This document shows, in pieces, positions 10,407-26,381 of a stretch of 30,073 bases of DNA (positions within the stretch are counted from its first letter, which is position 1; the number at the start of each line of letters is the position of its first letter). The stretch is from positions 1 through 30,073 of the forward strand of contig CAYPUW010000001.1 of NCBI GenBank assembly GCA_964413925.1, read 5' to 3'. The translations under genes were made by a program, and so were the position numbers. This DNA comes from an uncultured Rhodobacter sp. GTDB lineage: Bacteria; Pseudomonadota; Alphaproteobacteria; Rhodobacterales; Rhodobacteraceae. Under the pieces are notes generated by a model. It was not told the DNA's origin and made no database searches. It saw only the letters and a program-made list of their open reading frames with translations.

Positions 10407-12044
10407 TCAGTTTGCCTCGGCAATCAGCCGGATCACCGTTTGCCGGTTGAGATAGCCGGTCACCGAAAACCCTCGGGTCTTTTGGAATTTGCGAATTGCA
10501 CGGCGGGTTTTCTTATCGAAAGTCCCGTCAGGCGGGCCAGCCTTAAAGCCAAGCGTCAACAGCTGCTGCTCCACCAGAATACGCCCCAGACCATTCAGCC
10601 GCAAATCCGCCTCAGCCTGTTTCGCCGCATCTATTTCGGCCTGCTTAGCCGCTTGTTTCTGCAATGCCTTCTTGCGAGCTTTGGCCTCCGTGCCAAATGA
10701 ACCGTTCGCAAACGCATCAATATAACCCTGATAGCTCGCGATGGTATTTTGCGAGCGCGCATCATCCCATGACTGGCGCTCAAGTGGCGAAACCGTGTTG
10801 AGCCGCGCCTGTTCTATCGCTGTTAGGCGCGCATCGGCAACATCGGCAAAAAGCCCGTCAGGATAGCGGAATAAATAGCGTCTCAAGCCACGCTCGTCGC
10901 CGCTGGCCGCACCGCTTGCTTGCCAATAGGCACGATCAGCGGTCTCCAGAGCACGTTGTTTTTTACGGGCTTCTTCAGCCAGTTGCGCGGTTTTAGTCTC
11001 GGCCTGACGACCAATTCTGGTGATCTGGTTATCCAGCAAAAACCCGGTCGGATTGGCCCCGAAAGCCGCTTGCCAATTCCGGATGGCAGCACGGGTTCCA
11101 CGCCCGAAAATCCCGTCAATGCCGTGGGTATCATAGCCCAGCAAAGACAGGCTTTGCTGGATTGCACGCCGCTCATCGCGCGACAGACGCAATTGATCCT
11201 CATTGGCTTTTGCCTGCTCAAGCGGCGTCAATCTTACCTGCCCGTCCAGCCAGTTTTGCGCCTCGACCACATGGTTTCCACGCGGAAAAGCATCAAGATA
11301 TGCGCGCATCGCGATCTCTGAATTAAGGTCCTGAACCGCCTGCCAATAGCCGTCATCGGCCCCGCCAAAGCCAGCATCCGCCGCCGGGCTGAGCGCTGTC
11401 AGATCAGAGACAAAGCCTTGCCCCTTAACCGAAGCCGGAGCCTGCGCCAAAGCCGCCGCAACCCCTACGCCTTGGGCCAGAAAATCGCGTCTGACCGTGA
11501 GATCAATATCGACAGGATTGCCAGTGGCCACAAAAACGCCTTGCGGCACATTAAGCGTGCCAATCCCTGATTTCAGCCCAAAACCCAGATCAATTGAGCG
11601 CGGCACCGTGGCCAGAAAAATCGCCGCCCCGCCGGGCTTTTGCGCGGCAATATCCATCAGCGCGCCAATGGAAATCCCCATATATCCGATGTTACCCAAA
11701 TCAGGTCGATCAGCCTCTACCGGCACAAACCAGGTGTCGCGACCTGAATAAACAAAGTGGCCCGCAAGCACGATCACCGTGCGCGCAGCCTCGGGCAATC
11801 GTTGCAAATAACGCTCCATCGCCTGACGGGTCTGATCACCAGTCAAATCACGCCCCGACACCACCGCATAGCCCGCACGCCGCAAGGCGGAGGCCGTGTT
11901 CAGCACTCTGGGCGCATCATACATCCAACTGGCGCGCTGATAATTACGGTTGCCAAGCACCAGCGCGACATCGGCGGCAAATGTTGCCGACCACGAGAAA
12001 ACAAGGCCTGCGAAAGACAGGAAAACTACAGATAAAATACGCAA
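10407..12044 (-). CDS. Exported protein: inactive caspase-like (peptidase C14 fold) domain, helical repeats and two peptidoglycan-binding domains (about 545 aa)
   Basis: Likely TTG start at 12044 (GGGGG 8 nt upstream) gives the signal peptide MRILSVVFLSFAGLVFSWSATFA. ALVLGNRNY...VLAGHF...WFVPVEA resembles a C14 domain. Two Q..L..LG(Y/F)..G..DG.F...TR.AIR..Q...G...TG(F/Y)L PG-binding motifs. Confidence 0.8.
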   Translation of the reverse strand: MRILSVVFLSFAGLVFSWSATFAADVALVLGNRNYQRASWMYDAPRVLNTASALRRAGYAVVSGRDLTGDQTRQAMERYLQRLPEAARTVIVLAGHFVYSGRDTWFVPVEADRPDLGNIGYMGISIGALMDIAAQKPGGAAIFLATVPRSIDLGFGLKSGIGTLNVPQGVFVATGNPVDIDLTVRRDFLAQGVGVAAALAQAPASVKGQGFVSDLTALSPAADAGFGGADDGYWQAVQDLNSEIAMRAYLDAFPRGNHVVEAQNWLDGQVRLTPLEQAKANEDQLRLSRDERRAIQQSLSLLGYDTHGIDGIFGRGTRAAIRNWQAAFGANPTGFLLDNQITRIGRQAETKTAQLAEEARKKQRALETADRAYWQASGAASGDERGLRRYLFRYPDGLFADVADARLTAIEQARLNTVSPLERQSWDDARSQNTIASYQGYIDAFANGSFGTEAKARKKALQKQAAKQAEIDAAKQAEADLRLNGLGRILVEQQLLTLGFKAGPPDGTFDKKTRRAIRKFQKTRGFSVTGYLNRQTVIRLIAEAN

Positions 12045-12069
12045 CGCTAAAACCCCCAAGCCGATAAAA

Positions 12070-13296
12070 TCAGTCGTAACTCCTCTGATCGTCGATGACT
12101 TTGCCATCATTGGGCAGAGACCCCGGAGCCACCAATATCACATCGGCGCGTAATTTCAGAGTCCCAAGTATTGCCGCATCAAACTGCGAAGCATCGGTCT
12201 CGGTGGTTTCAATCTCCAAGGTCATCACATCGCGCTGGTCGCGACGCGTGGCAATTACGCGTGCTTTCTGGATGGCAGCGTTGGCCCCAACCAGTGCCGC
12301 GACCTGCTCGGGGCGCACGAACATGCCCTTGATCTTGGTCGTCTGATCGGCGCGCCCCATCCAGCCTTTGATGCGCATATTTGTGCGTCCACAAGGGCTT
12401 TGGCCCGGCAAAATGGCCGAAAGATCGCCGGTGGCGAACCGTATCAGCGGATAGTCCGGGTTGAGCGAGGTCACCAAAACCTCGCCCACATCGCCCTCTT
12501 TCACCGGATTGCCAGTGCCGGGGGTGACAATCTCGACCAACACGCCCTCATCCACGATCATGCCATCAAGGGCCTCGCTTTCATAAGCGATGCTGCCAAG
12601 ATCGGCGGTGGCGTAGCCTTGCAAACAGGCGATGCCACGCTCGGCATATTCGGCGCGAAGCGAAGGAAACAGCGCCCCTCCGCCCACAACCGCGCGCTTA
12701 ATCGAGCCAAGGTTGACCCCCATCTGATCGGCCTTATCAAGGATGATCTTGAGGTAATCGGGTGTACCAGCATAGGCGGTAACCCCCAAATCATGAGCCG
12801 CGCGAACCTGCAATTCGGTCTGGCCTGTGCCTGCGGGAAACACGGCGGCCCCAACTGCGCGCGCGGCGTTTTCAAAGATCATGCCGGCGGGGGTCATGTG
12901 GTAGGAAAAGCAGTTCTGCACGATGTCGCGCGCGCCAATGCCGCTGGCGCATAAGAACCGCCCCATGCGCCACCAGTCGTCAGATGTCTGGCCCGGCTCG
13001 TAGATCGGGCCGGGGGATTGGAACACATGGGCAAACTCATGGGCGGCACGCGTGGTAAATCCGCCAAACGGAGGGGAGGATTTCTGCGCCTCACCAAGGT
13101 TTGACTTTCGCAATACCGGCAACTGCGCGAGATCACCAAGGGTGGTGATGCTGTCAGGATCAACCTCCCCCAGATGACGGGCAAGCCCCGGCGCATGCGC
13201 CTTGGCGTTAGCAATCTGGCGCGGCAAGTCACGCGCGAGGTCGGCGGCGCGCTGATCGGCGTTGCGGGTTTCTAAATCGTCAAAAAATTTGCTCAT
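12070..13296 (-). CDS. Phenylacetate-CoA ligase (PaaK)-like adenylate-forming family protein
   Basis: L..LP...K, DIVQNCFSYH.TPAG..FE, GTPDYL, PLIRFATGD, GRADQ..KIKG.FV.P.Q, GKVI.D.R. RBS GAAAGGG. Confidence 0.85.
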   Translation of the reverse strand: MSKFFDDLETRNADQRAADLARDLPRQIANAKAHAPGLARHLGEVDPDSITTLGDLAQLPVLRKSNLGEAQKSSPPFGGFTTRAAHEFAHVFQSPGPIYEPGQTSDDWWRMGRFLCASGIGARDIVQNCFSYHMTPAGMIFENAARAVGAAVFPAGTGQTELQVRAAHDLGVTAYAGTPDYLKIILDKADQMGVNLGSIKRAVVGGGALFPSLRAEYAERGIACLQGYATADLGSIAYESEALDGMIVDEGVLVEIVTPGTGNPVKEGDVGEVLVTSLNPDYPLIRFATGDLSAILPGQSPCGRTNMRIKGWMGRADQTTKIKGMFVRPEQVAALVGANAAIQKARVIATRRDQRDVMTLEIETTETDASQFDAAILGTLKLRADVILVAPGSLPNDGKVIDDQRSYD

Positions 13297-13355
13297 TCAT
13301 CGACCCTTTCCAAATTATCTGCGCTCAACGACCGCGGCTTACGCATAGCGTCTCA

Positions 13356-14189
13356 TCAGCTCAGCCAGCGTTTACGGCGGCGATAGGACCGGGTGTTGCG
13401 AAAGGATTTTTTCCCTTCCTCGGAAATCCCCAGGTAGAATTCTTTCACATCGGGGTTCTCGCGCAATTCAGCAGAGGGACCGTCCATCACCACGCGACCG
13501 CTCTCCAGAATATACCCGTGATCGGAATATTTCAGCGCGACATTGGTGTTTTGCTCGGCCAGCAAAAAGGACACACCTTCCTTTTGATTGAGATCGGTCA
13601 CGATGCCGAAAATCTCCTCGACCAGTTGCGGCGCAAGACCCATCGACGGCTCGTCCAGCAGGATGGTTTCAGGCTTTGACATTAGCGCGCGCCCGATGGC
13701 CAGCATCTGCTGCTCACCGCCGGAGGTATATCCGGCCAGCGATTTATAGCGCTCTTTGAGGCGTGGAAAATAGGCATAGACCTTTTCAAGCTCGGCGGCG
13801 ATTGCCCCGGCCCCGTCTTTACGCGTGAACGCGCCGGTCAGCAGGTTTTCCTCTACCGTCAGATGCTCAAAACAATGGCGGCCTTCCATGACTTGAATGA
13901 CACCTCGACGCACCAGCTCGGCTGGATTGAGGCGACCCACATCATTGCCACGATAGCTGATCGTGCCTTTGGTCACCTCGCCGCGCTCTGACTGCAAGAG
14001 GTTGGAGATCGCTTTGAGCGTGGTGGTTTTCCCGGCCCCGTTCCCCCCCAGCAATGCGATGATCTTGCCCTTTGGTACCGACAGGCTGACGCCTTTGAGC
14101 ACAAGGATCACATGGTTGTAGATCACCTCGATATTGTTGACATCAAGGATGATTTCGGGCGTGGTTTCGGTTTGTTCGGCAACGCTCAT
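13356..14189 (-). CDS. ABC transporter ATP-binding subunit, LivF-like
   Basis: GGNGAGKTT, SGGEQQM, LLDEPSMG, EQN, and C-terminal tail SYRRRKRWLS. Confidence 0.93.
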   Translation of the reverse strand: MSVAEQTETTPEIILDVNNIEVIYNHVILVLKGVSLSVPKGKIIALLGGNGAGKTTTLKAISNLLQSERGEVTKGTISYRGNDVGRLNPAELVRRGVIQVMEGRHCFEHLTVEENLLTGAFTRKDGAGAIAAELEKVYAYFPRLKERYKSLAGYTSGGEQQMLAIGRALMSKPETILLDEPSMGLAPQLVEEIFGIVTDLNQKEGVSFLLAEQNTNVALKYSDHGYILESGRVVMDGPSAELRENPDVKEFYLGISEEGKKSFRNTRSYRRRKRWLS

Positions 14190-14216
14190 GAAGATGGTCC
14201 GGTTTATGTTCAGGCT

Positions 14217-14245
14217 GGGCCAGCCCCCGATTAAAGGGCTGGCCC
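14217..14245 (-). other. 10-bp RNA hairpin just downstream of the substrate-binding protein gene
   Basis: GGGCCAGCCC-9 nt-GGGCTGGCCC, with no U tract in the operon direction. Confidence 0.65.
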
Positions 14246-14264
14246 GGTTTTCAGTTCACTGCGA

Positions 14265-15569
14265 TTATTTGCAGGTCTGGGTCTGCCAATCAGGCTTGTC
14301 GGCGACGTATTTGTCGGCGGCAGCAATCAGCATAGGCCGCACAATGTCGGTCATTGGTGGGATCAGATCCGAGATACGCTTCCATGACGACCCAGTCCAC
14401 TGTTGCAAGAAGATCGAGCCACCGCCTGCATGGTCTTTGCAGGTCGATATGATCGGCGCAGTAAAGCCCGCAAACCCAAGCTCTTTCCAACGAGCGGCTG
14501 TGAGGTCCATAGCCTCCAGACCATCGCGCATGTCAGAGCCGGTGATATTGGCTTTGCCCGATATCTTTTGGGCGAGACGGATGCCTTCGGCAACAACTGC
14601 GGCGTTGAGAACACCCCGGTTGTAAAGCACTTTACCCACTTCGCTGCGGTCCTTGACCTGGCTCAGCCCTTTGTCCACGACAAGTTTCAGGATGTCCTGA
14701 ATTGCCGGGAAATCGGTGCCGTTACCGGACATGTTGGCGGCAATATAGCCCTTGCCAACTTCGCCAACCGGATCAAGGTCAGCGTTGGCGCCAGCCCACC
14801 AGTTGCCGATGAAATGGTCCATCGGATAGCGGATCTTGGCGGCTTCTTTGATCGCAGTTGCGTTCATCGCGCCAAAGCCCCACATGATCATCCAGTCAGG
14901 CTTTTCCTTGCGCACCTTCAGCCAATGCGAGGATTGCGACTGCATTTCCTTCACGCCAACCGGGAATTTCGCAACTGTGAACCCCATTGTTTTGGAGAGC
15001 GCATCAAGCAACGGAATTGGCTCTTTGCCGTAACCCACGTCAAGATAGATAAAGCCGATCTTCTTGCCTTTGATGCCACCGTCTTTGCTGTCGATATATT
15101 TAAGGATCGACGACATCTGGCTCCAATATGTTGCCGGATAGTTAAAGCCCCAAGGGAACTTTTCGCCAACTGCCGTAGCCGAAAGACCATAGCCCATGGA
15201 CAGCACCGGAATCTTATCTACCGGAGCTTTGGGGATCAACTGAAGCGTGATGCCGGTGGAATACGGATTGTAAACCAGCGCGCCATCGCCCTTGGTTGCC
15301 TCGTAACACTCAACACCTTTTTGCGAGTTATAGCCAGTTTCGCATTCGGGATTAACGATCTTGAGACCGCCAATACCGCCATCGCGCTGGTTCAGCATAG
15401 TCAGATAATCGTTAAAGCCGTTAGCGATGGGGATGCCAGCACCCGCGAACGGGCCGGTACGATAGGTCAGTGAAGGCACATTAAGCGTTTCAGCCGCGCT
15501 TATTGGTGCCATCTGCAGGGTTGCAGCCAGCGCAAGCGCGACTGTTCCTGTTGCAAGTTTCTTGAACAT
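14265..15569 (-). CDS. ABC transporter periplasmic substrate-binding protein (LivJ/K-like type I fold)
   Basis: Sec signal MFKKLATGTVALALAA..., YRTGP.A..G......G..DY...N.RDGG, CETGY....GVECYE, P.YW.Q, W.GWG-like MIMWGFG, NWW. RBS GGGAGG. Confidence 0.92.
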   Translation of the reverse strand: MFKKLATGTVALALAATLQMAPISAAETLNVPSLTYRTGPFAGAGIPIANGFNDYLTMLNQRDGGIGGLKIVNPECETGYNSQKGVECYEATKGDGALVYNPYSTGITLQLIPKAPVDKIPVLSMGYGLSATAVGEKFPWGFNYPATYWSQMSSILKYIDSKDGGIKGKKIGFIYLDVGYGKEPIPLLDALSKTMGFTVAKFPVGVKEMQSQSSHWLKVRKEKPDWMIMWGFGAMNATAIKEAAKIRYPMDHFIGNWWAGANADLDPVGEVGKGYIAANMSGNGTDFPAIQDILKLVVDKGLSQVKDRSEVGKVLYNRGVLNAAVVAEGIRLAQKISGKANITGSDMRDGLEAMDLTAARWKELGFAGFTAPIISTCKDHAGGGSIFLQQWTGSSWKRISDLIPPMTDIVRPMLIAAADKYVADKPDWQTQTCK

Positions 15570-15686
15570 TTCTGTCCTCCCATGTTTCGCAAGCAGCGAT
15601 TGTGCCGCCTACTTCAAAATTGAAACCTCTCTTTTGTGGACGGACCTGTCGGGTTTCAAAACCGGTCCGATATATGTGCAAGCGGC

Positions 15687-16763
15687 CTAGTAAGGAAATG
15701 GCCACACGCGCAATTTTTGTTTCAACATCGACCAGATACGCGCCAGCCCCCGAGGCTCGATGATCAGGAAAAAGATGATCAGCGCGCCGATGATCATAAA
15801 GTTGATATGTTCAACCGTAGCCGTATTTATGTCCAGCCCGAACAGTTTCGGCAGCGCACGAAGCACCACCGGCAGCATCCAGATGAAGGCCGCGCCAAGA
15901 TACGAGCCGACCAAACTGCCAAGCCCGCCGATGATCACCATGAACAACAACAGGAATGACTGGTTGGAGTCAAAGCTCTCAACCTCGGCCGCCCCCAGCC
16001 ACAAAAATACCATCATCGCCCCGGCCACGCCGCTATAAAACGACGACACCGCAAAGGCCGACAGTTTGGCGTAAAGCGGACGCACACCGATCAGCTCGGC
16101 GGCGATGTCCATATCACGGATCATCATCCAAGAGCGCCCGATGCGCCCATGAATAAGGTTAGACGCAATCCACGTCATCACCACCACAATCGACAGAACA
16201 ATCAGATAGCGGGTAACAGAGGAGGCCTCTGGACCAGTGACAATCACGTTCATGACTTCGCGCCGAGGCACCTCGATCGCTCCGCTGTCGTTGTAATTAT
16301 AAAGCCACGGAATTCGAATAAACGCCCATTCCAGAAAGAACTGCGCAGCCAAGGTGGTCACCACCAGATAAAACCCTTTGATGCGCAGGCTCGGAAGACC
16401 GAAAATCATGCCAATCCCGGCAGCAAAGAACCCCGACAATATAATCAGCAAGATCACGTTGGTGTCGGGAAAAATCGTCACCAGCTTATAGGCCGAATAA
16501 GCCCCGACCCCCATGAACGCGCCCGAACCAAGCGAGATTTGCCCAGTATAGCCGGTCAGAATGTTCAGCCCAATCGCCGACAGCGTAAAGATCAGAAACG
16601 GGATCATCATCGAGTCGATGAAAAAGTTGCTGCCGAAAATCGGGATAACAATGAAGGCGACAGCGAGATAAAACATGATCGCAATCCGGTCCTGAAGGAT
16701 CGGAAAGATCGCGCTGTCTTGCTTGTAGGTGGTTTTGAACTGGCCGGATTCGCGGTACAGCAT
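15687..16763 (-). CDS. ABC transporter permease, LivM-like
   Basis: GLNILTGYTGQISLG..AFM.VGAY, LR.KG.YL...T, ..IRD...AAE..G, IIGG.GS..G, C-terminal WPFPY. Confidence 0.92.
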   Translation of the reverse strand: MLYRESGQFKTTYKQDSAIFPILQDRIAIMFYLAVAFIVIPIFGSNFFIDSMMIPFLIFTLSAIGLNILTGYTGQISLGSGAFMGVGAYSAYKLVTIFPDTNVILLIILSGFFAAGIGMIFGLPSLRIKGFYLVVTTLAAQFFLEWAFIRIPWLYNYNDSGAIEVPRREVMNVIVTGPEASSVTRYLIVLSIVVVMTWIASNLIHGRIGRSWMMIRDMDIAAELIGVRPLYAKLSAFAVSSFYSGVAGAMMVFLWLGAAEVESFDSNQSFLLLFMVIIGGLGSLVGSYLGAAFIWMLPVVLRALPKLFGLDINTATVEHINFMIIGALIIFFLIIEPRGLARIWSMLKQKLRVWPFPY

Positions 16764-16768
16764 AAGGG

Positions 16769-17725
16769 TTACACTCTCTCGATGATTTTATCGCCAAACA
16801 GGCCTTGAGGACGAAACAGAAGGAAAATGAGGGCGATCACGTAAGCGAACCAGCCCTCAACCCCGCCGCCCAGAAGGCCTCCCCAATAGACCTCAAACAG
16901 TTTTTCGCCAAAGCCGATAATCAGCCCGCCGACGATTGCGCCGGGGATCGAGGTAAAGCCGCCAAGGATCAACACCGGCAGCGCTTTTAGCGCCACAATC
17001 TGTAACGCAAACGATACATCCGAGCGCGCGCCCCACATAATGCCGGTGGCCAACGCGACAATGCCCGCTGCAAACCACACAATCGCCCATATCTGATTAA
17101 GCGAAATCCCCACCGAAAGCGCCGCCTGATGGTCGTCGGCCACGGCGCGCAACGCCCGTCCAATGCGGGTTTTGCTGAAGAAAAATGCCAGCCCCGCCAC
17201 CAATATCCCAGCGATTACCACGGCGGCGATGTCGATATGCTGCAAGATCAAAATCCCTCCGAACGGCTCAAACTCGGTCGAGCCGGTGGGCAGGCCCAAT
17301 TGCTCGGTGATCATCGATTTGGTCTCGCCACCAAAGATAAACTGGCCCAGCCCGATCAGGAAATAACTGAGACCAATCGTGACCATGAACAAAATCAGCT
17401 CTGACTGATTGACCATGTGGCGCAGCACCAGCCTCTCGACCGCGACAGCCAACAGCGCCATCACTCCGATGGTCAATAACAGTGCCAAATAGGCCGGAAC
17501 ACCCGCCTGATATAGGCCCACAAGCGTCAGTGCCGAAAACACCACCATGATGCCTTGCGCGAAATTAAACACGCCGGACGCCTTGAAAATCAGCACAAAG
17601 CCGAGCGCAATCAGTGAATAAAGCGTGCCAGTGACAAAGCCCTCCCACAGCACTTGCAAAAAGAAATCCGGCGTACTGATCATGTCGGCAAACGGCGCTA
17701 TGAAGATTTGGTAAAGTAAGTCCAT
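16769..17725 (-). CDS. ABC transporter permease, LivH-like
   Basis: G...G.LYSLIALGF.LI.KASGVFNFAQG, T..G.ALRAVADD..AA...G, LGGF.SI.GA..GG, RP.GLFG. Confidence 0.92.
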   Translation of the reverse strand: MDLLYQIFIAPFADMISTPDFFLQVLWEGFVTGTLYSLIALGFVLIFKASGVFNFAQGIMVVFSALTLVGLYQAGVPAYLALLLTIGVMALLAVAVERLVLRHMVNQSELILFMVTIGLSYFLIGLGQFIFGGETKSMITEQLGLPTGSTEFEPFGGILILQHIDIAAVVIAGILVAGLAFFFSKTRIGRALRAVADDHQAALSVGISLNQIWAIVWFAAGIVALATGIMWGARSDVSFALQIVALKALPVLILGGFTSIPGAIVGGLIIGFGEKLFEVYWGGLLGGGVEGWFAYVIALIFLLFRPQGLFGDKIIERV

Positions 17726-18537
17726 CAGCTTGGGACCCCCAGATAAGCGTCGATAACCGCTTGATTTCGTTGAACTTCGGCGGGAACCCCGTCGGCGATT
17801 TTCTTGCCGTAATCCAGCACCACCACCCGGTCGGCAAGGTCCATGACCACGCCCATATCGTGCTCGATCAAGGTGATCGTGGTGCCAAACTGGTCGTTCA
17901 CGTCAAGAATATAGCGGCTCATGTCCTCTTTTTCCTCGACATTCATGCCCGCCATCGGTTCATCGAGCAACAGCAAGGACGGCTCGGCAGCCAGCGCGCG
18001 ACCAAGCTCAACCCGCTTTTGCAAGCCGTAAGGCAACTGGCCCGCAGGCGTGTGGCGGATGTGTTCAAGCTCCAGAAAATCAATGATCTCCTCAACGGCG
18101 CGCCGGTGCTTGATCTCTTCATTCATCGCCGGACCATAACGCAGCATCTGCCAGATAAACCCTTTGTTCATCTTTAACGCGCGCCCTGCCATGATATTAT
18201 CCAGCGTGGACATGCCCGAAAACAGTGCAACATTTTGAAATGTCCGCGAAATCCCCGAGACCGCCGCATGGTAGGGCCGCATGCGCGAGCGGGTTTCGCC
18301 GCGAAAGGTAATCTGGCCTTCCTGCGCATGATAAAACCCGTTGATCACGTTCAGCATCGAGGTCTTGCCCGCGCCGTTCGGCCCGATTATGGCGCGAATT
18401 TCGCCCTCTAGAATATCAAACGATATATCCTTGATCGCCGTCACCCCGCCAAACCGCAGGGTGATATTCTTAACTTCCATCACCGGCCCGCCGATGGTGC
18501 GCCCGTCCGCTGTGGTGGTGGTTTGATCAAAACTCAT
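17725..18537 (-). CDS. ABC transporter ATP-binding subunit, LivG-like
   Basis: GPNGAGKTS, RTFQN..LF, LPYG.QKR.ELGRAL, LLLDEP.AG, IEHDM, V..AYLG. Confidence 0.93.
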   Translation of the reverse strand: MSFDQTTTTADGRTIGGPVMEVKNITLRFGGVTAIKDISFDILEGEIRAIIGPNGAGKTSMLNVINGFYHAQEGQITFRGETRSRMRPYHAAVSGISRTFQNVALFSGMSTLDNIMAGRALKMNKGFIWQMLRYGPAMNEEIKHRRAVEEIIDFLELEHIRHTPAGQLPYGLQKRVELGRALAAEPSLLLLDEPMAGMNVEEKEDMSRYILDVNDQFGTTITLIEHDMGVVMDLADRVVVLDYGKKIADGVPAEVQRNQAVIDAYLGVPS

Positions 18538-20504
18538 GCGGCTATTGCCCTCCGGGGGAATGTTTTGGCAGCGCGAATAGTGAGCGTCGCCGAGATCGAG
18601 CCTTTGCGCCCATCCTCATACGTCACCTCGGTGTTGGTGAAAATCTCGTCCACCTCTCCGTTCAGCGCCCCGATCAGATCGGCATATTTCTCGTCGATAA
18701 TCCGGCGGCGAACCTTGCGGGTGCGGGTCATTTCCCCGTCATCTGGATCAAGTTCCTTGTGCAAAATCAAGAATCTGTGGATCTGACACCCGTTCAGCAT
18801 CACATCATCGGCAAGCGTGGCATTGACCTCCTCAATATGGTGCTGGATCACGTCCATGACCCGCGCATGACCGGCCAATTCCTGATAGGACGAATAGCTG
18901 ACATTGTTGCGCTCGGCCCAATTACCAACCGCGCTGAGGTCGATGTTGATGAACGCTGTGCATTTGTCGGTTCCGGCCCCAAACAGCACCGCTTCCAACA
19001 CATCCGGGTAGAACTTGAGCTTATTTTCCACATATTTGGGCGCAAACAGGCTCCCATCGGCCATTTTACCCACATCCTTGGCCCGGTCGATAATCTTGAG
19101 ATGCCCCGAGCTTTCGTCGATATAGCCCGCATCCCCCGTGGCAACCCAGCCCTCGGCATCCTTGGTCGAGGCTGTGCTTTCGGGGTTTTTGTAATATTCA
19201 ACGAACACGCCGGGCGAGCGGTAATAGACCTCGCCATTATCGCCGATCTTGATCTCGACACCGGGGGCCGGCACGCCAACCGTGTCGGCACGCACCTCGC
19301 CATCAGGCTGGATCGTGATGTAAACCGAGGCCTCGGTCTGGCCGTAAAGCTGCTTGAGATTGATCCCGAGCGAGCGGTAAAATTCAAAAATCTCCGGCCC
19401 GATCGCCTCGCCCGCGGTATAGCCAATGCGAACACGGCTCATGCCCATGCGGTTCTTGAGCGGGCCGTAAACCAGAATATTGCCGAGCGCATATTTCAGC
19501 CGGTCACCAAGAGCCACCGATTTGCCGTCAAGAATATCGCCGCCGACCTTTTTGGCATGGTCCAAAAAATAGTTAAACATCCGGCGTTTGGTCTTTCCGG
19601 CATCCTCCATGCGGATCATCACCGCCGTCAGCACACCCTCAAAGAACCGTGGAGGTGCAAAGAAATACGACGGCCCGATCTCGCGCAGATCGTTTTGCAT
19701 GGTGATCTCGCTTTCGGGGCAAGAAACGCAAAACCCGGTCCAGTAACATTGGCCGATCGAAAAGATGAAATCACCGACCCACGCCATCGGCAGATAGGCC
19801 AGCACGCTGTCGCCGACGTTCAAATCATCAAACTCCGACGATGATTTCGCCGATTCGATGATATTGCGGTTGGAGAGCACCACACCCTTGGGCTTGCCGG
19901 TGGTGCCAGACGTATAAAGCATAACGCAGGTGGTGTCGTAGTTTTGCACAACCTCCCGCTTGGCCAGCACCGGCGAAAGCCGCTCTCGCGCGGCCCGGCC
20001 CTCTTTTTGAATATCCTTCAAGGCATGCAGGGTCGTGTGGTCATATTTGCGCATACCACGCGGCTCCAGATAGATGATCTGCTCAAGCGCCGGTAGTTTA
20101 TCCTGTATTTCCAAAACCTTATCGACCTGCTCTTGATTTTCGGCAATCACATATCGCGCCGTGCAATGGCCCAGAACATAGCCCATCTCATCGGCAACCG
20201 CATCTTGATAGAGGGGAACCGGCACCGCGCCAACTTTTTGGGCGGCAACCATCGACCAATAAAGCGCGGGGCGATTGCGGCCAATAATCGCCACATGATC
20301 GCCGATCTCAACACCAAGCGCCAAAAACCCAAGCGCCAGCGCAGTGATTTCGTCCTCAAGCTCGGCCCAGCTCCAGCTTTGCCAGATGCCAAACTCTTTT
20401 TCACGGTTCGCAGCCTTGTCACCCATCTCGCGCGCATTACGCGCCAGCAGTTTGGGGACAGTATCCAGATCACCCGAGGGCGCTGTTTGTGCGGTCAAAT
20501 TCAT
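18534..20504 (-). CDS. Long-chain acyl-CoA synthetase (AMP-binding, FadD15/ACSL-like), 656 aa
   Basis: Start MNLTAQ at 20504 behind AAGGGGAGG. YTSGTTGKPKG, LAYLP..W, YGQTE, TGDAG, IIDR.KD, P..VEN.LK, T.T.K..R. The stop overlaps the next ATG (ATGA). Confidence 0.92.
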   Translation of the reverse strand: MNLTAQTAPSGDLDTVPKLLARNAREMGDKAANREKEFGIWQSWSWAELEDEITALALGFLALGVEIGDHVAIIGRNRPALYWSMVAAQKVGAVPVPLYQDAVADEMGYVLGHCTARYVIAENQEQVDKVLEIQDKLPALEQIIYLEPRGMRKYDHTTLHALKDIQKEGRAARERLSPVLAKREVVQNYDTTCVMLYTSGTTGKPKGVVLSNRNIIESAKSSSEFDDLNVGDSVLAYLPMAWVGDFIFSIGQCYWTGFCVSCPESEITMQNDLREIGPSYFFAPPRFFEGVLTAVMIRMEDAGKTKRRMFNYFLDHAKKVGGDILDGKSVALGDRLKYALGNILVYGPLKNRMGMSRVRIGYTAGEAIGPEIFEFYRSLGINLKQLYGQTEASVYITIQPDGEVRADTVGVPAPGVEIKIGDNGEVYYRSPGVFVEYYKNPESTASTKDAEGWVATGDAGYIDESSGHLKIIDRAKDVGKMADGSLFAPKYVENKLKFYPDVLEAVLFGAGTDKCTAFINIDLSAVGNWAERNNVSYSSYQELAGHARVMDVIQHHIEEVNATLADDVMLNGCQIHRFLILHKELDPDDGEMTRTRKVRRRIIDEKYADLIGALNGEVDEIFTNTEVTYEDGRKGSISATLTIRAAKTFPRRAIAA

Positions 20505-20568
20505 TCCTCCCCTTCGCTGGGCAGACGCCAGCGTACGATTCCGCCAAACGAGCGAATCCGTGATAGTC

Positions 20569-20636
20569 TTGACCCGTCTTTGGTGCAGGTCAATTGCTTC
20601 ATGAGTTTTTCGCAATTGTATCCAATTGTAACAAGT
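20569..20636. promoter_or_regulatory. Divergent control region with phased direct repeats and a dyad
   Basis: CAATTGTA at 20613-20620 and 20623-20630 (10-bp period), a third CAATTG at 20591-20596, and TTGACC-N13-GGTCAA at 20569-20593. Confidence 0.5.
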
Positions 20637-20709
20637 CACGTCTTCGCTATCTGGTGCTGGTCAAACCGGCCTTGGCAATGGTAGCGATGGACGCGAAAGG
20701 GGCGATCTT

Positions 20710-22644
20710 GTGGCGCATGGTGCAAATAAAACCTCGGCACTCACCCGAGCCGGTCTGAACCTGATCCAGCAGGCCTTGTCGATTTATGACGGCGATCTGC
20801 GCTTGGCGCTGTGCAATAGCCGCTTTCAGGAAATGTTCGGCCTGCCCGAGCAACTAACCACGCCGGGAGCGCTGTTTTCCGACACCATCCGCTTTTTGGC
20901 GGAATGCGGAGATTACGGCCAAATCGACGATCTGGACGAGTATGTTGCCGAAAAAGTCCAACAAGCACTGGCGTTCAAACCGCATTATGTGGAGCGCGAG
21001 CGCGCCAATGGCCGTACGATTTCGGTCGAGGGCAGCCCACTCCCACAAGGCGGCTGGGTCACGGTTTACACCGATATTACCGCGATAAAACGCCAAGAGG
21101 CGCTGCTACGCAGCCATTCCGCCCATCTATCCGACCAGCTATTAAGCCACTCCGAAGATCTCGCGCGCGCCAACCGCGAGCTGGCCGCAACCATCGCCAC
21201 GCTTGAGGAAACCAAGCGCCACCTGACCGAAAGCGAGGCCCTGACCCGTACCACCACCGAAATGATGCCCGCCCATATCGCCCATATCAGCCTTGACGAG
21301 GTCTACACCTATTCCAATGGCCAGTTGCGCTCAGTCATGCCCGACGGCCCGCCCGAGGTCGAAGGCGAGCGCGTCAGCCGCGCGCTTGGCGGCGAGATAT
21401 ATCCCATCGTCAAACCCTATTTCGACAACGCCTGCCAAGGACAACCCAGCGTGTTTGAGTTCTCTCATTCCGAAGGGGCGCGGCGCTGCCGTGTCGCCCT
21501 CACGCCGGGGCGCGGAGCGGACGATAAGGTCAATGGCGTCTATGTCATGTCGATGGATATCACCGACGAGGTGCAAGCGCGCGCGGCCCTGATGCAGACC
21601 CATAAACGCGAACTTGCCGCCCAGCTCACCAGCGGTCTGGCCCATGATTTCGCCAATCTTCTGACCATCATTCTCGGGCTTCAAGGCCAGCTTGAAAAAC
21701 AGCCCGATCTTGGGGAGGATGCGCGGGAGCTGATTTCCACCACGCGCGCCGCTGCCCTGCGCGGCGGGGTTTTGCTCGACCGTTTGTCCAATATTTCAGG
21801 CCAGCGCGACCTGCATCCAACCTCGACCGATCTGGCGGAATTATTCCGGGATATCGGGGCCATGGCGTCGCCCTCGCTGCCGGACCTGACCGAGCTTTCG
21901 CTGGATTGCGGCACGATGAAACGTCCGGTCATTCTGGATAGCGGCTTTTTTCAAGACGCGCTGTTGAACCTTATTCTCAACGCTCGCGACGCCATCGGGC
22001 CGGGGGGCGGGGCGATCCGGGTGCGGGCCTCGGCTTTGCGCGACACTTGGCTTGAGTTGAAGGTCCGCGATACCGGCGCAGGGTTCTCGCCCGACGCGCT
22101 GATGCGAGGGCTGGAGCCGTTTTACACCACCAAGCGCAATGACGAAGGCTCGGGCCTTGGCCTCTCGATGGTTTACGATTTCGCCCAGCTTTCGGGCGGT
22201 CTGGTCAAGCTCGCCAATAGCGTCACAGGCGGTGGGGTCGTGACCATGCGCTTGCCGCTAAAATATGGTCAGGAGCCAACCGCGCCACGGCTGGTCTTGC
22301 TGGTCGAAGACAGCCCCGAAATCCGCACCAACCTACGCGAAATGCTGCGCGATCTTGGCCATAGCGTGCTGGAGGCCTCAAGCGCGGAAGAGGCCGAATC
22401 CCTCGCCCAAATCCCCGAGATCGACACAGTTTTGACCGATATCACCCTTAACGGCAGCAAAACCGGGCTTGATCTGGCCCGCGCGCTCAGACGCGCACAC
22501 AACCCGTCACGGGTATTTTTGATGACCTCGCGCGCAGCCAATGACGAAATCAGGCGCGCCGCAGAACAAGAATTCCCGCTGCTCAGCAAACCGTTTTCAA
22601 TCGCCGAGCTGACCGGATTTCTAGAGGCCGACCACATATCATGA
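20710..22644 (+). CDS. Soluble hybrid sensor histidine kinase (PAS-fold, coiled coil, PAS, HisKA, HATPase, REC)
   Basis: No transmembrane stretch. SIYDGDLRL..CNSRF..MF (PAS-fold), H box GLAHDFAN, N box NLILNARDA, DTGAG, EPFYTTK, GSGLGL, and receiver LVED...VLTD...SKPF. GTG start behind AAGGGG. Confidence 0.93.
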   Translation: MAHGANKTSALTRAGLNLIQQALSIYDGDLRLALCNSRFQEMFGLPEQLTTPGALFSDTIRFLAECGDYGQIDDLDEYVAEKVQQALAFKPHYVERERANGRTISVEGSPLPQGGWVTVYTDITAIKRQEALLRSHSAHLSDQLLSHSEDLARANRELAATIATLEETKRHLTESEALTRTTTEMMPAHIAHISLDEVYTYSNGQLRSVMPDGPPEVEGERVSRALGGEIYPIVKPYFDNACQGQPSVFEFSHSEGARRCRVALTPGRGADDKVNGVYVMSMDITDEVQARAALMQTHKRELAAQLTSGLAHDFANLLTIILGLQGQLEKQPDLGEDARELISTTRAAALRGGVLLDRLSNISGQRDLHPTSTDLAELFRDIGAMASPSLPDLTELSLDCGTMKRPVILDSGFFQDALLNLILNARDAIGPGGGAIRVRASALRDTWLELKVRDTGAGFSPDALMRGLEPFYTTKRNDEGSGLGLSMVYDFAQLSGGLVKLANSVTGGGVVTMRLPLKYGQEPTAPRLVLLVEDSPEIRTNLREMLRDLGHSVLEASSAEEAESLAQIPEIDTVLTDITLNGSKTGLDLARALRRAHNPSRVFLMTSRAANDEIRRAAEQEFPLLSKPFSIAELTGFLEADHIS

Positions 22645-23363
22645 CCGACAAATCCCCAGCACATGCGCCCATGGTCGCCATACTCGATGACGAGCCGCAA
22701 ATCCGCCTGATGCTATCGGACGCCCTGCAAGACGCCGGATTTCGCACCGCCAGTTTCGGGCGTGCGACCGAGTTTGAGGCCGCTCTTGCCACCTTGTCAC
22801 CCAGCATTTGTCTGGTGGATCTCGGCCTGCCAGACAAAGATGGGTTGGCGTTGGTGCATCGCTTGGCGCTGGAAAGCGGCGCGGCGATCATCATCATTTC
22901 TGGGCGCGCACAAGTGCAAGACAAGGTCACGGGGCTGGAGCTTGGGGCGGATGACTACATCATCAAACCGTTTGATCCCGCCGAGGTGGTGGCGCGGGCG
23001 CGCGCCCTGTTGCGTCGGGGCCGCGTGGTTGAAATCAGCGCGCCAAACACCGCCAAATTCGCCGGCTGGACCGCGCGCTTTGAGCGCTTCACACTGGAGG
23101 CCGCTGACGGCGAAATCATCCCCTTCAGCCAAGCCGAAGGCGAGGTTCTGCGCCTGTTTCTCAACGCCCCCAACCGGCTGATTTCGCGCGCGCAGATGCA
23201 AGAAAGCCTTGGCGGTCTTGCAGGCGAAAGCTTTGATCGCGCGATGGATGTTCGCGTTTCACGCCTGCGCACCAAGCTGCGCGAAGACCCAAAAAACCCC
23301 AAACTTATCAAGACCATATACGGGGCTGGCTATATATTTCTCGGCGAGGTTGATTGGTCCTGA
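22641..23363 (+). CDS. OmpR/PhoB-family response regulator
   Basis: ILDDE...CLVDLGLP..DG, GADDYIIKPF, and winged-helix RAMDVRVSRLR.KL...P....TIYGAGY. The ATG overlaps the kinase stop. Confidence 0.95.
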   Translation: MTDKSPAHAPMVAILDDEPQIRLMLSDALQDAGFRTASFGRATEFEAALATLSPSICLVDLGLPDKDGLALVHRLALESGAAIIIISGRAQVQDKVTGLELGADDYIIKPFDPAEVVARARALLRRGRVVEISAPNTAKFAGWTARFERFTLEAADGEIIPFSQAEGEVLRLFLNAPNRLISRAQMQESLGGLAGESFDRAMDVRVSRLRTKLREDPKNPKLIKTIYGAGYIFLGEVDWS

Positions 23364-23600: not shown

Positions 23601-26381
23601 TCACTCCGCCGCCAGCGAGCTGTCAACTTTCTCAACCCTGACAGCGGAAAACTTGAACTCGGGAATTTTACCCACCGGATCAAGCGCCGCATTGGTCAGG
23701 ATATTGGCCGCAGCCTCTACATAAGCAAACGGCAAAAACACCATATCCTCGGCCACCGCACGATCCGCGCGCGCCATAGTGACGATGGAGCCGCGCTTGG
23801 TGGTCAGACGGATCAATCCGCCCGGATCAACGCCCAGCGCGCGCAGGGTTTTGGGGTGAAGCGAGCAGTTTGCCTCCGGCTCCACCGCGTCCAGAACTCG
23901 CGAACGCCGGGTCATCGAGCCGGTGTGCCAATGCTCCAACTGCCGCCCCGTGGTCAGGATCATCGGGTATTGCGCATCCGGCACATCATCGGGCGCAATG
24001 ATCGAAGCGGGGGTAAATTTCGCCCGCCCTTCAGGCCGCGGGAACCCGTCGCCAAACACAATCGCCTGACCGGGATCAGTTGGCGACAGCGACGGATAGG
24101 TGACCGTCTCGCGCGTCAACCGCTCCCAAGTGATGTTATCGAGCGACTTCATGCTTTGCTTCATCTCGGCGAAAATCTCCGACGGATGGTTGTAATTCCA
24201 GTCCAGCCCCAGCCGCTGCGCAAGCTCGGTGGTGATGCGCCAATCCTCGCGCGCCTCGCCGGGAGGGGGAACCGCCTGACGTCCCATTTGCACCTGACGG
24301 TTGGTGTTGGTGACGGTGCCGGTCTTTTCGGCAAACGCGCTCGCAGGCAAAATCACGTCAGCATAATTGGCGGTTTCGGTGAGGAAAATATCCTGAACCA
24401 CCAGATGATCAAGCGCCGCCAACGCATTACGCGCATGTTCCACATTAGGGTCGGACATGGCGGGATTTTCACCCATAATATACATGCCGCGAATATTTCC
24501 CGCATGAACATCATCCATGATCTCGACCACGGTCAGGCCCTTTTCGGCAGAAAAATCATGCTCTGATTGCCAAATTTCGTTAAAGGCCGAGCGCACGCCA
24601 TCATCGGTAACAGATTGATAATCCGGCAAAAACATCGGGACTAACCCCGCGTCAGAGGCCCCTTGAACATTGTTCTGGCCTCTGAGCGGATGCAGGCCGG
24701 TTCCGGGGCGACCAACTTGGCCGCACATCAGCGCCAGCGAGATCAGGCAACGCGCATTATCAGTGCCGTGAATATGCTGGCTGACCCCCATGCCCCAGAA
24801 AATCATCCCGGCTTTGGCGTTGGCAAATATACGCGCCACTTCGCGCAGTTCACCAGCCGAAATACCACAAATCTCGGCCATATTTTCTGGTGTAAAATCA
24901 GCAAGATGGGCCTTTTGCGCCGCCCAGTTTTCGGTATAGGCCGCAATATATTGCTGGTCGTAAAGGTTTTCTTCAATAATTGCCTGCATGATCGCGTTTA
25001 ACATCGACACGTCTGTTCCGGGCCGGAATTTCAGCATGTTGGTGGCATAACGGCCCAGCGCCACGCCGCGAGGGTCCATCACGATCAGTTTGCCACCGCG
25101 CTTGGTGAACTGCTTGAAATAGGTTGCCGCGACCGGATGATTTTCGATCGGGTTACAGCCAATGACGATCGCCACATCGGCGTTCTCGATCTGGTTAAAG
25201 GTGGCAGTGACCGCACCAGAACCGATATTCTCCATCAGCGCTGCCACGCTGGAGGCATGGCAAAGCCGTGTGCAGTGATCAACATTATTGTGACCAAAGC
25301 CCTGACGGATCAGCTTTTGAAACAAATAGGCCTCTTCATTGGTGCATTTGGCCGACCCAAACCCGGCAACGGACCGCGCGCCTTTTTGGTCGCGCAGACG
25401 GGCAAGACCAGAGGCAGCAACCTCCATCGCCTCCTCCCACGAGGCCTCGCGAAAATGGGTCAGCACATTGCCAGGGTCCACATTCAGCCCCTTGGCAGGT
25501 GCATCATCGCGGCGGATAAGCGGCTTAGTCAGCCGGTGCTCGTGGTGGATATAGTCAAAGCCGAACCGACCTTTGACGCAAAGACGCTGCTCATTGGCCG
25601 GCCCATCAAGCCCGTCCACATATTTAATGCGCCCGTCCTTGATTTTCAACGAAATCTGGCAGCCCACGCCGCAAAACGGGCAAATACTGGCAACCTCGCG
25701 GTCAAAATCAGCGCTGTCGCCGACCTGCCCGGCATCAAGCACACTCGCGGGCATCAGCGCCCCCGTCGGACAGGCCTGCACACATTCACCACAAGCCACG
25801 CAGGTCGAGAGACCCATCGGATCATTCATGTCAAAAACGATCTGGCTACCTTGCCCCCGTCCGGCCATGCCGATCACATCATTCACCTGCACTTCACGGC
25901 ACGCACGCACGCACAGATTGCACTGAATACAGGCGTCAAGATTGACCCGCATCGCCACATGGCTGTCATCCAACAGCGGCACACGCGCGCTGTCAACCGG
26001 CGCGAATCGACTGCCGCTCAGGCCTTGCATTTGCGCCATCCGCCAAAACTGCGAGGACTTATCATGCGCCACATCCTGCGGCGGTTGATCCGCCAACAAT
26101 AACTCCATCACCATCTTTCGCGCGGTATCGGCGCGCGCAGATTGCGATTTGACCACCATCCCCTCGCTCGGCACACGAATGCAAGACGCCGCCAACGTAC
26201 GCTCCCCATCGATCTCCACCATGCAGGCGCGGCAATTGCCGTCACTACGATACCCCGGCTCACCGGAATGACAAAGATGAGGGATTTCGGTGCCTTCGCG
26301 CTTGGCGACCTCCCAAATCGTTTCGCCGGGCTGGGCGGTGACGAGCTTGTCGTCCAATAAAAAAGTAACGGGGTCCGACAT
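23601..26381 (-). CDS. fdhF: Formate dehydrogenase alpha subunit, Cys-ligated Mo/W-bis-MGD, cytoplasmic; resembles Methylorubrum extorquens FDH1 alpha
   Basis: [2Fe-2S] HLC...GNCRAC...AASC; 2x[4Fe-4S] CIQCNLC..AC and CVACGEC..ACP; CPFCGVGC...LCVKG; active site NNVDHCTRLCH; LRGQNNVQG; TGR.LEHWHTG. No Tat signal. Confidence 0.93.
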   Translation of the reverse strand: MSDPVTFLLDDKLVTAQPGETIWEVAKREGTEIPHLCHSGEPGYRSDGNCRACMVEIDGERTLAASCIRVPSEGMVVKSQSARADTARKMVMELLLADQPPQDVAHDKSSQFWRMAQMQGLSGSRFAPVDSARVPLLDDSHVAMRVNLDACIQCNLCVRACREVQVNDVIGMAGRGQGSQIVFDMNDPMGLSTCVACGECVQACPTGALMPASVLDAGQVGDSADFDREVASICPFCGVGCQISLKIKDGRIKYVDGLDGPANEQRLCVKGRFGFDYIHHEHRLTKPLIRRDDAPAKGLNVDPGNVLTHFREASWEEAMEVAASGLARLRDQKGARSVAGFGSAKCTNEEAYLFQKLIRQGFGHNNVDHCTRLCHASSVAALMENIGSGAVTATFNQIENADVAIVIGCNPIENHPVAATYFKQFTKRGGKLIVMDPRGVALGRYATNMLKFRPGTDVSMLNAIMQAIIEENLYDQQYIAAYTENWAAQKAHLADFTPENMAEICGISAGELREVARIFANAKAGMIFWGMGVSQHIHGTDNARCLISLALMCGQVGRPGTGLHPLRGQNNVQGASDAGLVPMFLPDYQSVTDDGVRSAFNEIWQSEHDFSAEKGLTVVEIMDDVHAGNIRGMYIMGENPAMSDPNVEHARNALAALDHLVVQDIFLTETANYADVILPASAFAEKTGTVTNTNRQVQMGRQAVPPPGEAREDWRITTELAQRLGLDWNYNHPSEIFAEMKQSMKSLDNITWERLTRETVTYPSLSPTDPGQAIVFGDGFPRPEGRAKFTPASIIAPDDVPDAQYPMILTTGRQLEHWHTGSMTRRSRVLDAVEPEANCSLHPKTLRALGVDPGGLIRLTTKRGSIVTMARADRAVAEDMVFLPFAYVEAAANILTNAALDPVGKIPEFKFSAVRVEKVDSSLAAE

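Follow-up and report, generated by a model that had tools for sequence, protein, structure and literature searches.

What does a Liv-type ATP-binding cassette (ABC) transporter import when its genes are bracketed by two genes of the ANL superfamily of adenylate-forming proteins? This question is raised by a 30,073-nt window (the whole stretch of DNA analyzed here, from contig CAYPUW010000001.1 of an uncultured Rhodobacter sp.), in which such a locus occupies positions 10407-23363. The genome is a 2.58-Mb alphaproteobacterial metagenome-assembled genome of 474 contigs, the nearest relatives of which are labelled Rhodobacteraceae/Paracoccaceae. We found that seven genes, encoding an acyl-coenzyme A (CoA) ligase, LivG, LivH, LivM, a periplasmic substrate-binding protein (SBP), LivF, and a PaaK-like protein, form a core cassette. 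This cassette is a probable Liv-type organic-acid importer encoded together with a CoA ligase, a known kind of system that is here widespread, annotated, and uncharacterized. Our best explanation, to which we give somewhat better than even chances, is that the cassette imports a hydrophobic carboxylic acid and retains it in the cell as a thioester, with a two-component pair controlling its expression in Rhodobacteraceae.

Genes were called from an open reading frame (ORF) list combined with Pfam and NCBIfam scans of the window. The seven core genes are on the minus strand and begin with that for a 656-aa acyl-CoA (or acyl-acyl carrier protein, ACP) synthetase of the long, FadD11/ACSL-like type (18534..20504; Pfam AMP-binding). 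It is followed by genes for a LivG-like ATPase (17725..18537; Pfam ABC_tran and BCA_ABC_TP_C), for LivH-like (16769..17725) and LivM-like (15687..16763) permeases, each with a Pfam BPD_transp_2 domain and multiple hydrophobic segments, and for the 434-aa SBP, a member of a distinct Peripla_BP_6 (Pfam) subfamily (14265..15569). A LivF-like ATPase (13356..14189; Pfam, NCBIfam, and an alignment of 29 orthologues) and the 408-aa PaaK-like member of the ANL superfamily (12070..13296), recognized by its match to PaaK in PDB entry 4R1L, complete the core. An eighth co-directional gene, for a peptidoglycan (PG)-binding protein, lies downstream. The junctions of these eight genes are overlaps of 4 and 1 nt or gaps of 5, 117, 75, 59, and 25 nt, the ligase stop and livG start sharing 4 nt, and a divergent spacer of 205 nt (20505-20709) separates the ligase gene from that of a histidine kinase. 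Two start assignments underlie these values. The ligase start was set at the ATG at 20504, which is preceded by a GGAGG Shine-Dalgarno sequence, and a longer GTG ORF extending to 20639 was rejected as an artefact; the PG-binding gene was started at TTG 12044, which yields a clean signal peptide. With both starts corrected, all of the junctions and the spacer come out as given in an earlier, sequence-only reading of this DNA, and its eight co-directional genes were confirmed by the ORF list and domain scans. Its observation that no U-tailed terminator separates the operon genes also held: none of the gaps between its genes contained one, and terminator-like hits of the scan (20 versus 17.2 ± 5.4 expected) were at chance level. 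Likewise, the promoter consensus scan gave hits no more often than expected by chance.

The order of the seven core genes proved to be conserved well beyond the window. A pattern scan with an SBP alignment, using one genome per species, recovered at least 597 relatives and returned 80 loci. All seven genes, from ligase to PaaK-like, were present in the same order and on the same strand in 45 of the 58 related loci that had enough flanking sequence, and the full core was found in 16 of 20 further loci from a phylum-wide sample, including loci from families beyond the Alphaproteobacteria. Among 401 sampled Pseudomonadota genomes, an SBP orthologue was present in 75, a PaaK-like orthologue in 77, and both in 66; these relatives are not independent of each other, and the co-occurrence pattern covers more than 12 families. 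In genomes where the PaaK-like gene was not adjacent to the cassette, it was located elsewhere (G222 and G324), and no PaaK-like orthologue was found in the two genomes checked that had a divergent SBP only and no ligase (G088 and G384). Because gene order is kept and the genes are co-inherited across more than a dozen families, the seven-gene arrangement is far beyond chance and is a real unit. The statement in the sequence-only reading that similar gene orders recur in proteobacteria was thus borne out by the neighborhood survey, and both ANL-superfamily genes were tightly syntenic and co-inherited with the transporter.

These data bear on the simplest alternative, in which the genes are conserved neighbors that share no function and the two-component pair regulates something else. 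Conserved neighborhood can be non-functional here, as the PG-binding gene (below) illustrates, and the synteny surrounding the cassette in Hyphomicrobiales is largely of housekeeping genes (hemH, Band7/NfeD, and a porin). However, coincidental neighbors would not be expected to have stop/start overlaps of 4 and 1 nt, to keep their order in distant classes, or to co-occur at the genome level even when unlinked. Moreover, kinase orthologues were found only in linkage with the ligase gene, and a cis box is unique to the spacer between the two. We therefore consider this alternative very improbable.

With two BPD_transp_2 permeases, LivG and LivF ATPases, and a Peripla_BP_6 SBP, all above Pfam gathering scores, the transporter has the composition of the HAAT/LIV type (TC 3.A.1.4). 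It shares the five-part architecture of the Escherichia coli LivJ/K-LivHMGF system (LIV-I), but differs from it in several respects. The SBP is approximately 70 aa longer, and two ANL-superfamily genes are within the operon. Furthermore, the subunits scored far below the Liv equivalog cut-offs of NCBIfam, at 232 versus 362 bits for LivG, 74 versus 379 for LivH, 108 versus 366 for LivM, and 203 versus 441 for LivF, and no NCBIfam model matched the SBP. LivF also differs in having an extra C-terminal tail of approximately 25 residues (window positions 13356-13430), which ends in an invariant basic Y-x-RRKRWL motif across the 29 orthologues and lies beyond the match to the LivF family model (residues 13-254 of 277). 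This tail could be a docking or membrane-contact element.

In the case of the SBP, the closest solved relative, and the only close one, was PDB 4RU0 (phmmer E 7e-91; TM-score 0.89-0.93), a putative branched-chain amino acid ABC binding protein from the Pseudomonas fluorescens group that belongs to the same subfamily. This entry comes from structural genomics, its title names no ligand, and we found no publication on it, so it supplies no function. The AlphaFold2 model of the window SBP had a predicted local distance difference test (pLDDT) score of 87.9, with residues 1-22 disordered, as for a signal peptide. After 4RU0, Foldseek ranked 3LKB, which binds valine, an Aeropyrum protein, and 4N03, which binds a fatty acid, followed by binders of aromatic acids and 2-oxoacids. 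Both 3LKB and 4N03 are distant relatives, and the fold search did not separate the classes of ligand. Invariant Trp, Tyr, and Phe residues are abundant in the region of the pocket. The SBP could be aligned to LivJ at the profile level only (hhalign probability 86%), and this alignment set an invariant Trp at the position of the LivJ ammonium-binding Glu. Profile hits to binders of aromatic acids (Rhodopseudomonas palustris RPA0668 and RPA0985, and the CouP group) were marginal, with E of 3e-4 to 4e-4 and 12-18% identity in structural alignments.

Could the database label nevertheless be correct and the transporter be of the LIV type, importing branched-chain or aromatic amino acids? Under this explanation, the imported amino acids would undergo transamination and decarboxylation by an oxidoreductase, and the two ANL genes would belong to later or unrelated steps. 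For each of the five transporter parts the best matches are to Liv families, the second-nearest solved structure (3LKB) binds valine, and the recurrent oxidoreductase and liu-type neighbors described below are amino-acid catabolic enzymes. However, the Liv scores all fall far below the equivalog cut-offs, and an importer of amino acids would have no need of a CoA ligase, whereas here two ANL genes are inherited together with the transporter and translationally coupled to it in many families; the replacement of the LivJ Glu by an invariant Trp is a weak further point. We consider import of amino acids unlikely. The sequence-only reading had held the branched-chain amino acid label to be probably wrong. 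The failed equivalog tests favor that view, but the label is not refuted, 3LKB and 4N03 being about equal by fold.

The two ANL-superfamily proteins proved to be quite different from each other. The large ligase is a normal, canonical ANL acyl-CoA synthetase: PF00501 (AMP-binding) matched over 2-384 of 384 (E 2e-69), and its P-loop, YTSGTTGKPKG, follows the pattern [ST][ST]G[ST][ST]GxPK. Its best NCBIfam match was FadD11, at 263 bits against a cut-off of 950 bits, and other fatty-acid ligase models also remained below their cut-offs.

The second protein, in contrast, carries SPGPIYEP at the position of the ATP P-loop, where PaaK has SSGTTGKP; in the alignment to 4R1L (E 2.5e-35), SSGTTG corresponds to SPGPIY. 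This replacement is fixed, with S94, P95, G96, P97, I98, and E100 invariant in 29 of 29 orthologues (SPGPIxEP). The TGD and GRADQ motifs (ribose and hinge) were invariant in the same orthologues, and the A10 Lys was kept in 26 and lost in three. Two PaaK paralogues elsewhere in the same genome retain SSGTTG[KQ]PT. In the ANL superfamily, the P-loop holds the ATP phosphates. Because this loop has been replaced, the PaaK-like protein is probably non-adenylating and probably not a phenylacetate-CoA ligase. In line with this, both PaaK models failed (106 versus 646 bits for TIGR02155 and 141 versus 700 bits for NF041878), and no paa ring-oxidation genes were found in the window or in approximately 100 related loci. 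Compared with PaaK itself (PDB 2Y27, 2Y4O, and 4R1L), the fold family is the same and the A7 (TGD), A8 (GRxDQ/D), and C-terminal DGK motifs are recognizable, but SPGPIxEP takes the place of SSGTTGKP and the gene is always tied to the transporter, not to paa catabolic genes. The description of this gene as a second adenylate-forming, PaaK-like ligase is therefore not supported: with its P-loop gone, the protein may not be a ligase at all. A complex prediction of LivF with the PaaK-like protein returned "no answer" (score 0.00) and is neutral on binding.

The ligase and the SBP pocket bring in a further alternative, namely that the cassette scavenges medium- or long-chain fatty acids. In this scenario, the SBP would bind C8-C18 fatty (or dicarboxylic) acids, acyl-CoA or acyl-ACP would feed beta-oxidation or membrane-lipid recycling, and the genomic link to an oxidoreductase, described below, would be incidental. 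The best family match of the ligase is FadD11, a long-chain fatty-acid-CoA ligase, a distant structural relative of the SBP (4N03) is titled a fatty-acid ABC binding protein, and the pocket region has many invariant Trp, Tyr, and Phe. Moreover, Liv-type SBPs of R. palustris bind C7-C14 fatty and dicarboxylic acids in a thermal-shift screen (PMC3223731). Against this, the FadD11 score lies far under its cut-off, the cassette has no conserved beta-oxidation neighbors across about 100 loci, the recurring functional neighbors are of another kind, and the PaaK-like partner is left unexplained. Fatty-acid scavenging is hence a possibility to be taken seriously, if one that we would not expect to prevail.

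Those recurring neighbors carry most of the information on the substrate. A gene for a fused indolepyruvate-type 2-oxoacid:ferredoxin oxidoreductase (IOR) of approximately 1170 aa was located directly upstream of, and co-directional with, the cassette in 13-17 Hyphomicrobiales loci, and also in locus L120. At the genome level, the IOR signature PF20169 was present in 73 of the 77 PaaK-like-positive genomes versus 61 of the 324 others. Additionally, in Hoeflea the cassette is followed by genes for a TetR regulator, an acyl-CoA dehydrogenase, and methylcrotonyl-CoA-carboxylase-like proteins, that is, genes of the isovaleryl-CoA pathway. The other recurrent neighbors had housekeeping functions (hemH, Band7/NfeD, porin, and transglycosylase). 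IOR and PaaK-like ligase pairs of anaerobes and archaea interconvert aryl acids and arylpyruvates, and they likewise combine an indolepyruvate-type oxidoreductase with a co-occurring PaaK-family gene. The present association differs in that the IOR is a single fused protein found mostly in aerobic Proteobacteria, that an ABC importer and a second ligase lie in between, and that the PaaK-like member lacks the P-loop.

Import of a carboxylate by this kind of transporter has precedent. Aromatic acids, 2-oxoacids, and fatty acids are all bound by Liv-type SBPs (PMC3223731; PDB titles), and in R. palustris both CouP with p-coumarate-CoA ligase and RPA3723-3725 beside pimFABCDE place a Liv-type carboxylate importer next to an activating CoA ligase (PMC3223731). 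The cassette described here differs from these systems in its SBP, which is 12-18% identical, in its ligase, which is of the long FadD11/ACSL-like type, in the obligatory second gene for a P-loop-less PaaK-like protein, and in having no catabolic pathway attached in the window genome. In full-text literature searches, we found neither the cassette nor 4RU0 as the subject of a functional study, and none is contained in PMC3223731, PMC6515984, PMC4103551, PMC10130141, or PMC11304471. A C7/C8 fatty-acid transporter from an RB-TnSeq study (bioRxiv 10.1101/2025.02.21.639450) could not be mapped to this family.

Taken together, we favor uptake and thioester trapping of a hydrophobic carboxylic acid. 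The periplasmic SBP would capture the acid, LivH and LivM, powered by LivG and LivF, would carry it over the inner membrane, and the FadD11/ACSL-like ligase, translationally coupled to livG, would convert it to acyl-CoA (or acyl-ACP). The PaaK-like protein would act as an obligate partner that binds or processes the acyl-adenylate or acyl-CoA, either as an enzyme of the second half-reaction or as a regulator. Because the IOR and Hoeflea links point to the metabolism of Leu, Ile, Val, Phe, and Trp, with its acyl-CoA and 2-oxoacid products, our best guess for the substrate is an amino-acid-derived branched-chain or aryl acid, which we modestly favor over generic fatty acids. Candidates would be isovalerate, isobutyrate, 2-methylbutyrate, phenylacetate, and indoleacetate, or their 2-oxo forms. 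The sequence-only reading had proposed import and CoA activation of a fatty or aromatic acid; a non-amino-acid carboxylate indeed remains the most economical substrate, but the IOR link, which that reading had not noticed, has moved the best guess to branched-chain or aryl acids derived from amino acids.

Several observations weigh against our preferred explanation. The nearest ligand-bound folds of the SBP, those of 3LKB with valine and 4N03 with a fatty acid, are about equal by fold score, so amino acids and long-chain fatty acids stay among the candidates, and the exchange of the LivJ Glu for Trp counts for little, because valine-binding 3LKB also lacks a Glu there. The best family match of the ligase suggests a long-chain fatty acid as substrate instead of a short branched one. 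Shared ancestry inflates the co-occurrence with the IOR, and in the window genome the two IOR genes are on other contigs. In most Hyphomicrobiales the downstream neighbors are housekeeping genes (e.g., hemH), making the context there uninformative, and literature searches found ligand data for no member of the cassette.

A more far-reaching version of the same idea would join the cassette and the fused IOR into an unrecognized salvage route in aerobic Proteobacteria. Exogenous branched-chain and aryl acids would enter through the Liv-derived ABC system, be thioesterified by the ACSL-like ligase, and then be converted to and from their corresponding 2-oxoacids and amino acids. The PaaK-like protein would be a pseudo-ligase that does not adenylate, with a role in sensing the acyl-adenylate or acyl-CoA or in passing it on. 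In Rhodobacteraceae, the intracellular product would be detected by the cytoplasmic PAS kinase, which would turn the operon on via the TACAATTG repeats. We regard this complete scheme as rather doubtful.

How is the operon controlled? Facing it on the plus strand are genes for a hybrid histidine kinase (20710..22644; Pfam PAS_7, PAS_4, H-box, HATPase_c, and a receiver domain, REC) and an OmpR/PhoB-family response regulator (22641..23363; Pfam Response_reg and Trans_reg_C), the kinase stop and regulator start sharing 4 nt. The kinase, the H-box of which reads LAHDFANLL, has no hydrophobic segment, in agreement with its earlier description as soluble, and is thus cytoplasmic. An H-box and HATPase_c kinase, a regulator with receiver and winged-helix domains, and a tandem repeat in the spacer together make this a two-component system of the OmpR/PhoB type. 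Across 80 Rhodobacteraceae genera, ligase orthologues were present in 64 and kinase orthologues in 35. In 32 of these 35 the kinase gene was divergent and next to the ligase gene, at gaps of 199-371 nt (below 1.4 kb where the ligase N-terminus was unaligned); in the remaining three, it was 2.4-3.8 kb from the ligase gene (two genera) or the locus was split by a contig end (one). None of the 35 kinase-bearing genera lacked the ligase, and in three genomes in which the cassette is without the pair, no kinase orthologue was found anywhere.

Alignment of the spacers from Rhodobacteraceae genera revealed a single conserved block, a 32-nt box (20604..20635, minus strand) that carries a tandem 10-nt direct repeat, GTTACAATTG GATACAATTG. 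From the box it is 99 nt to the ligase ATG on one side and 74 nt to the kinase GTG on the other, and a TTGACC hexamer follows after 10 nt. With a position weight matrix (PWM) built from the block, scores of 40-48 were reached only in spacers with the divergent pair, compared with 10-17 in Roseibium and less than 8 in other ligase upstream regions, and the exact motif has a single copy in the 2.58-Mb genome. One site with a single mismatch (C417:835-853), near gatB and a hypothetical gene, gave no lead. OmpR/PhoB-type regulators bind tandem repeats with a period of 10-11 nt. The box is accordingly spaced like such a site and is, from its sequence, a candidate binding site of the OmpR-type regulator, which would bind the tandem TACAATTG repeat in the shared spacer; in Rhodobacteraceae, the divergent PAS hybrid kinase and regulator would probably control expression in this way.

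Because the tandem-repeat box of OmpR/PhoB type is confined to pair-bearing spacers and the kinase is always linked to the ligase, the pair is very probably dedicated to the operon, within Rhodobacteraceae only. The earlier proposal of a dedicated pair consequently stands in part: the pair was syntenic with the transporter in 34 of the 35 kinase-bearing genera and has a conserved cis box, but it is a lineage-specific addition outside of the general cassette. Apart from a distant version in Roseibium, most other lineages showed no such pair next to the cassette. The sequence-only reading had also left open whether the ligases and the pair keep their synteny with the transporter in other genomes; the ligases do so broadly, and the pair does so within Rhodobacteraceae.

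The Roseibium loci merit separate description. In these seven loci (L055, L057, L059, L060, L061, L063, and L076), the region preceding the ligase gene holds a variant of the spacer box, with ACA[AC]ATT repeats. Four of the seven were also found to have a kinase/regulator pair, which is only distantly related (31-41% identity). The regulatory design may be older than Rhodobacteraceae, or may have been transferred.

The eighth co-directional gene (10407..12044, minus strand) encodes a secreted protein with a signal peptide, a caspase-like Peptidase_C14 domain at its N-terminus, and two PG_binding_1 domains at its C-terminus, based on Pfam. Orthologues were found in 38 of the 80 family genomes, at 35-45% identity, and at least 23 of these 38 were downstream of the cassette on the same strand. 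However, at least six were in genomes without a ligase orthologue, and the gene was absent from the loci examined outside Rhodobacteraceae. We therefore treated it as a conserved neighbor at the family level and not as a core part, in departure from its earlier inclusion in the system.

Within the operon, directly 3' of the SBP stop, we noted a perfect 12-bp GC-rich hairpin without a U tail (14217..14245, minus strand), with a centroid fold of -26 kcal/mol and a whole-stretch z-score of -2.05. Hairpins of this kind are typical of intra-operon elements that raise the level of binding-protein mRNA over that of the remaining operon, and this one is probably an intra-operon mRNA stabilizer or partial stop.

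Moreover, the cassette appeared to be mosaic when window positions 13356-18537 were compared with loci L055 and L114. The window SBP, LivH, and LivM were 61, 78, and 66% identical to those of Hyphomicrobiales such as Roseibium versus approximately 46, 53, and 51% for other Rhodobacteraceae, while the ligase, LivF, and PaaK-like protein had 68, 78, and 65% identity to Rhodobacteraceae versus 60, 73, and 55% to Roseibium. These identities suggest that, in the genus of the window genome, recombination has exchanged the core made up of the periplasmic and membrane components. In other Rhodobacteraceae loci (L115-L117 and L122), 1-2.3 kb of extra sequence was present between the livG and livH matches within the cassette.

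The flanking genes of the window (formate-dehydrogenase-like, FGase, DinB, ClpB, SDR, and saccharopine-dehydrogenase-like) were set aside as unrelated to the cassette. The first of these is of the formate-dehydrogenase alpha type (23601-26381, minus strand; 926 aa), has Fer2_4, 4Fe-4S, and molybdopterin domains, and is oriented convergently with the regulator gene; its synteny extends to the closest relatives and to L114, and it seems unrelated to the cassette. Antisense ORF clusters c6, c10, and c11 were dropped as artefacts of high G+C content.

The cassette occurs in about one-fifth of the sampled Pseudomonadota genomes and about four-fifths of Rhodobacteraceae genera. Databases label its products as a branched-chain amino-acid transporter and a "phenylacetate-CoA ligase family protein", and neither passes its own family test. 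Two features go beyond the existing family labels, namely the SPGPIxEP-bearing PaaK-like protein and the association with the fused IOR. The former provides a clear natural example of an adenylate-forming fold in which the ATP loop was lost although strong selection persists. In Rhodobacteraceae, the kinase/regulator pair and its conserved candidate operator provide a handle for a reporter-fusion screen of the inducing compound. Assignment of the substrate would correct thousands of annotations and would identify a carbon source or a salvage route in bacteria that are abundant in the sea and in soil.

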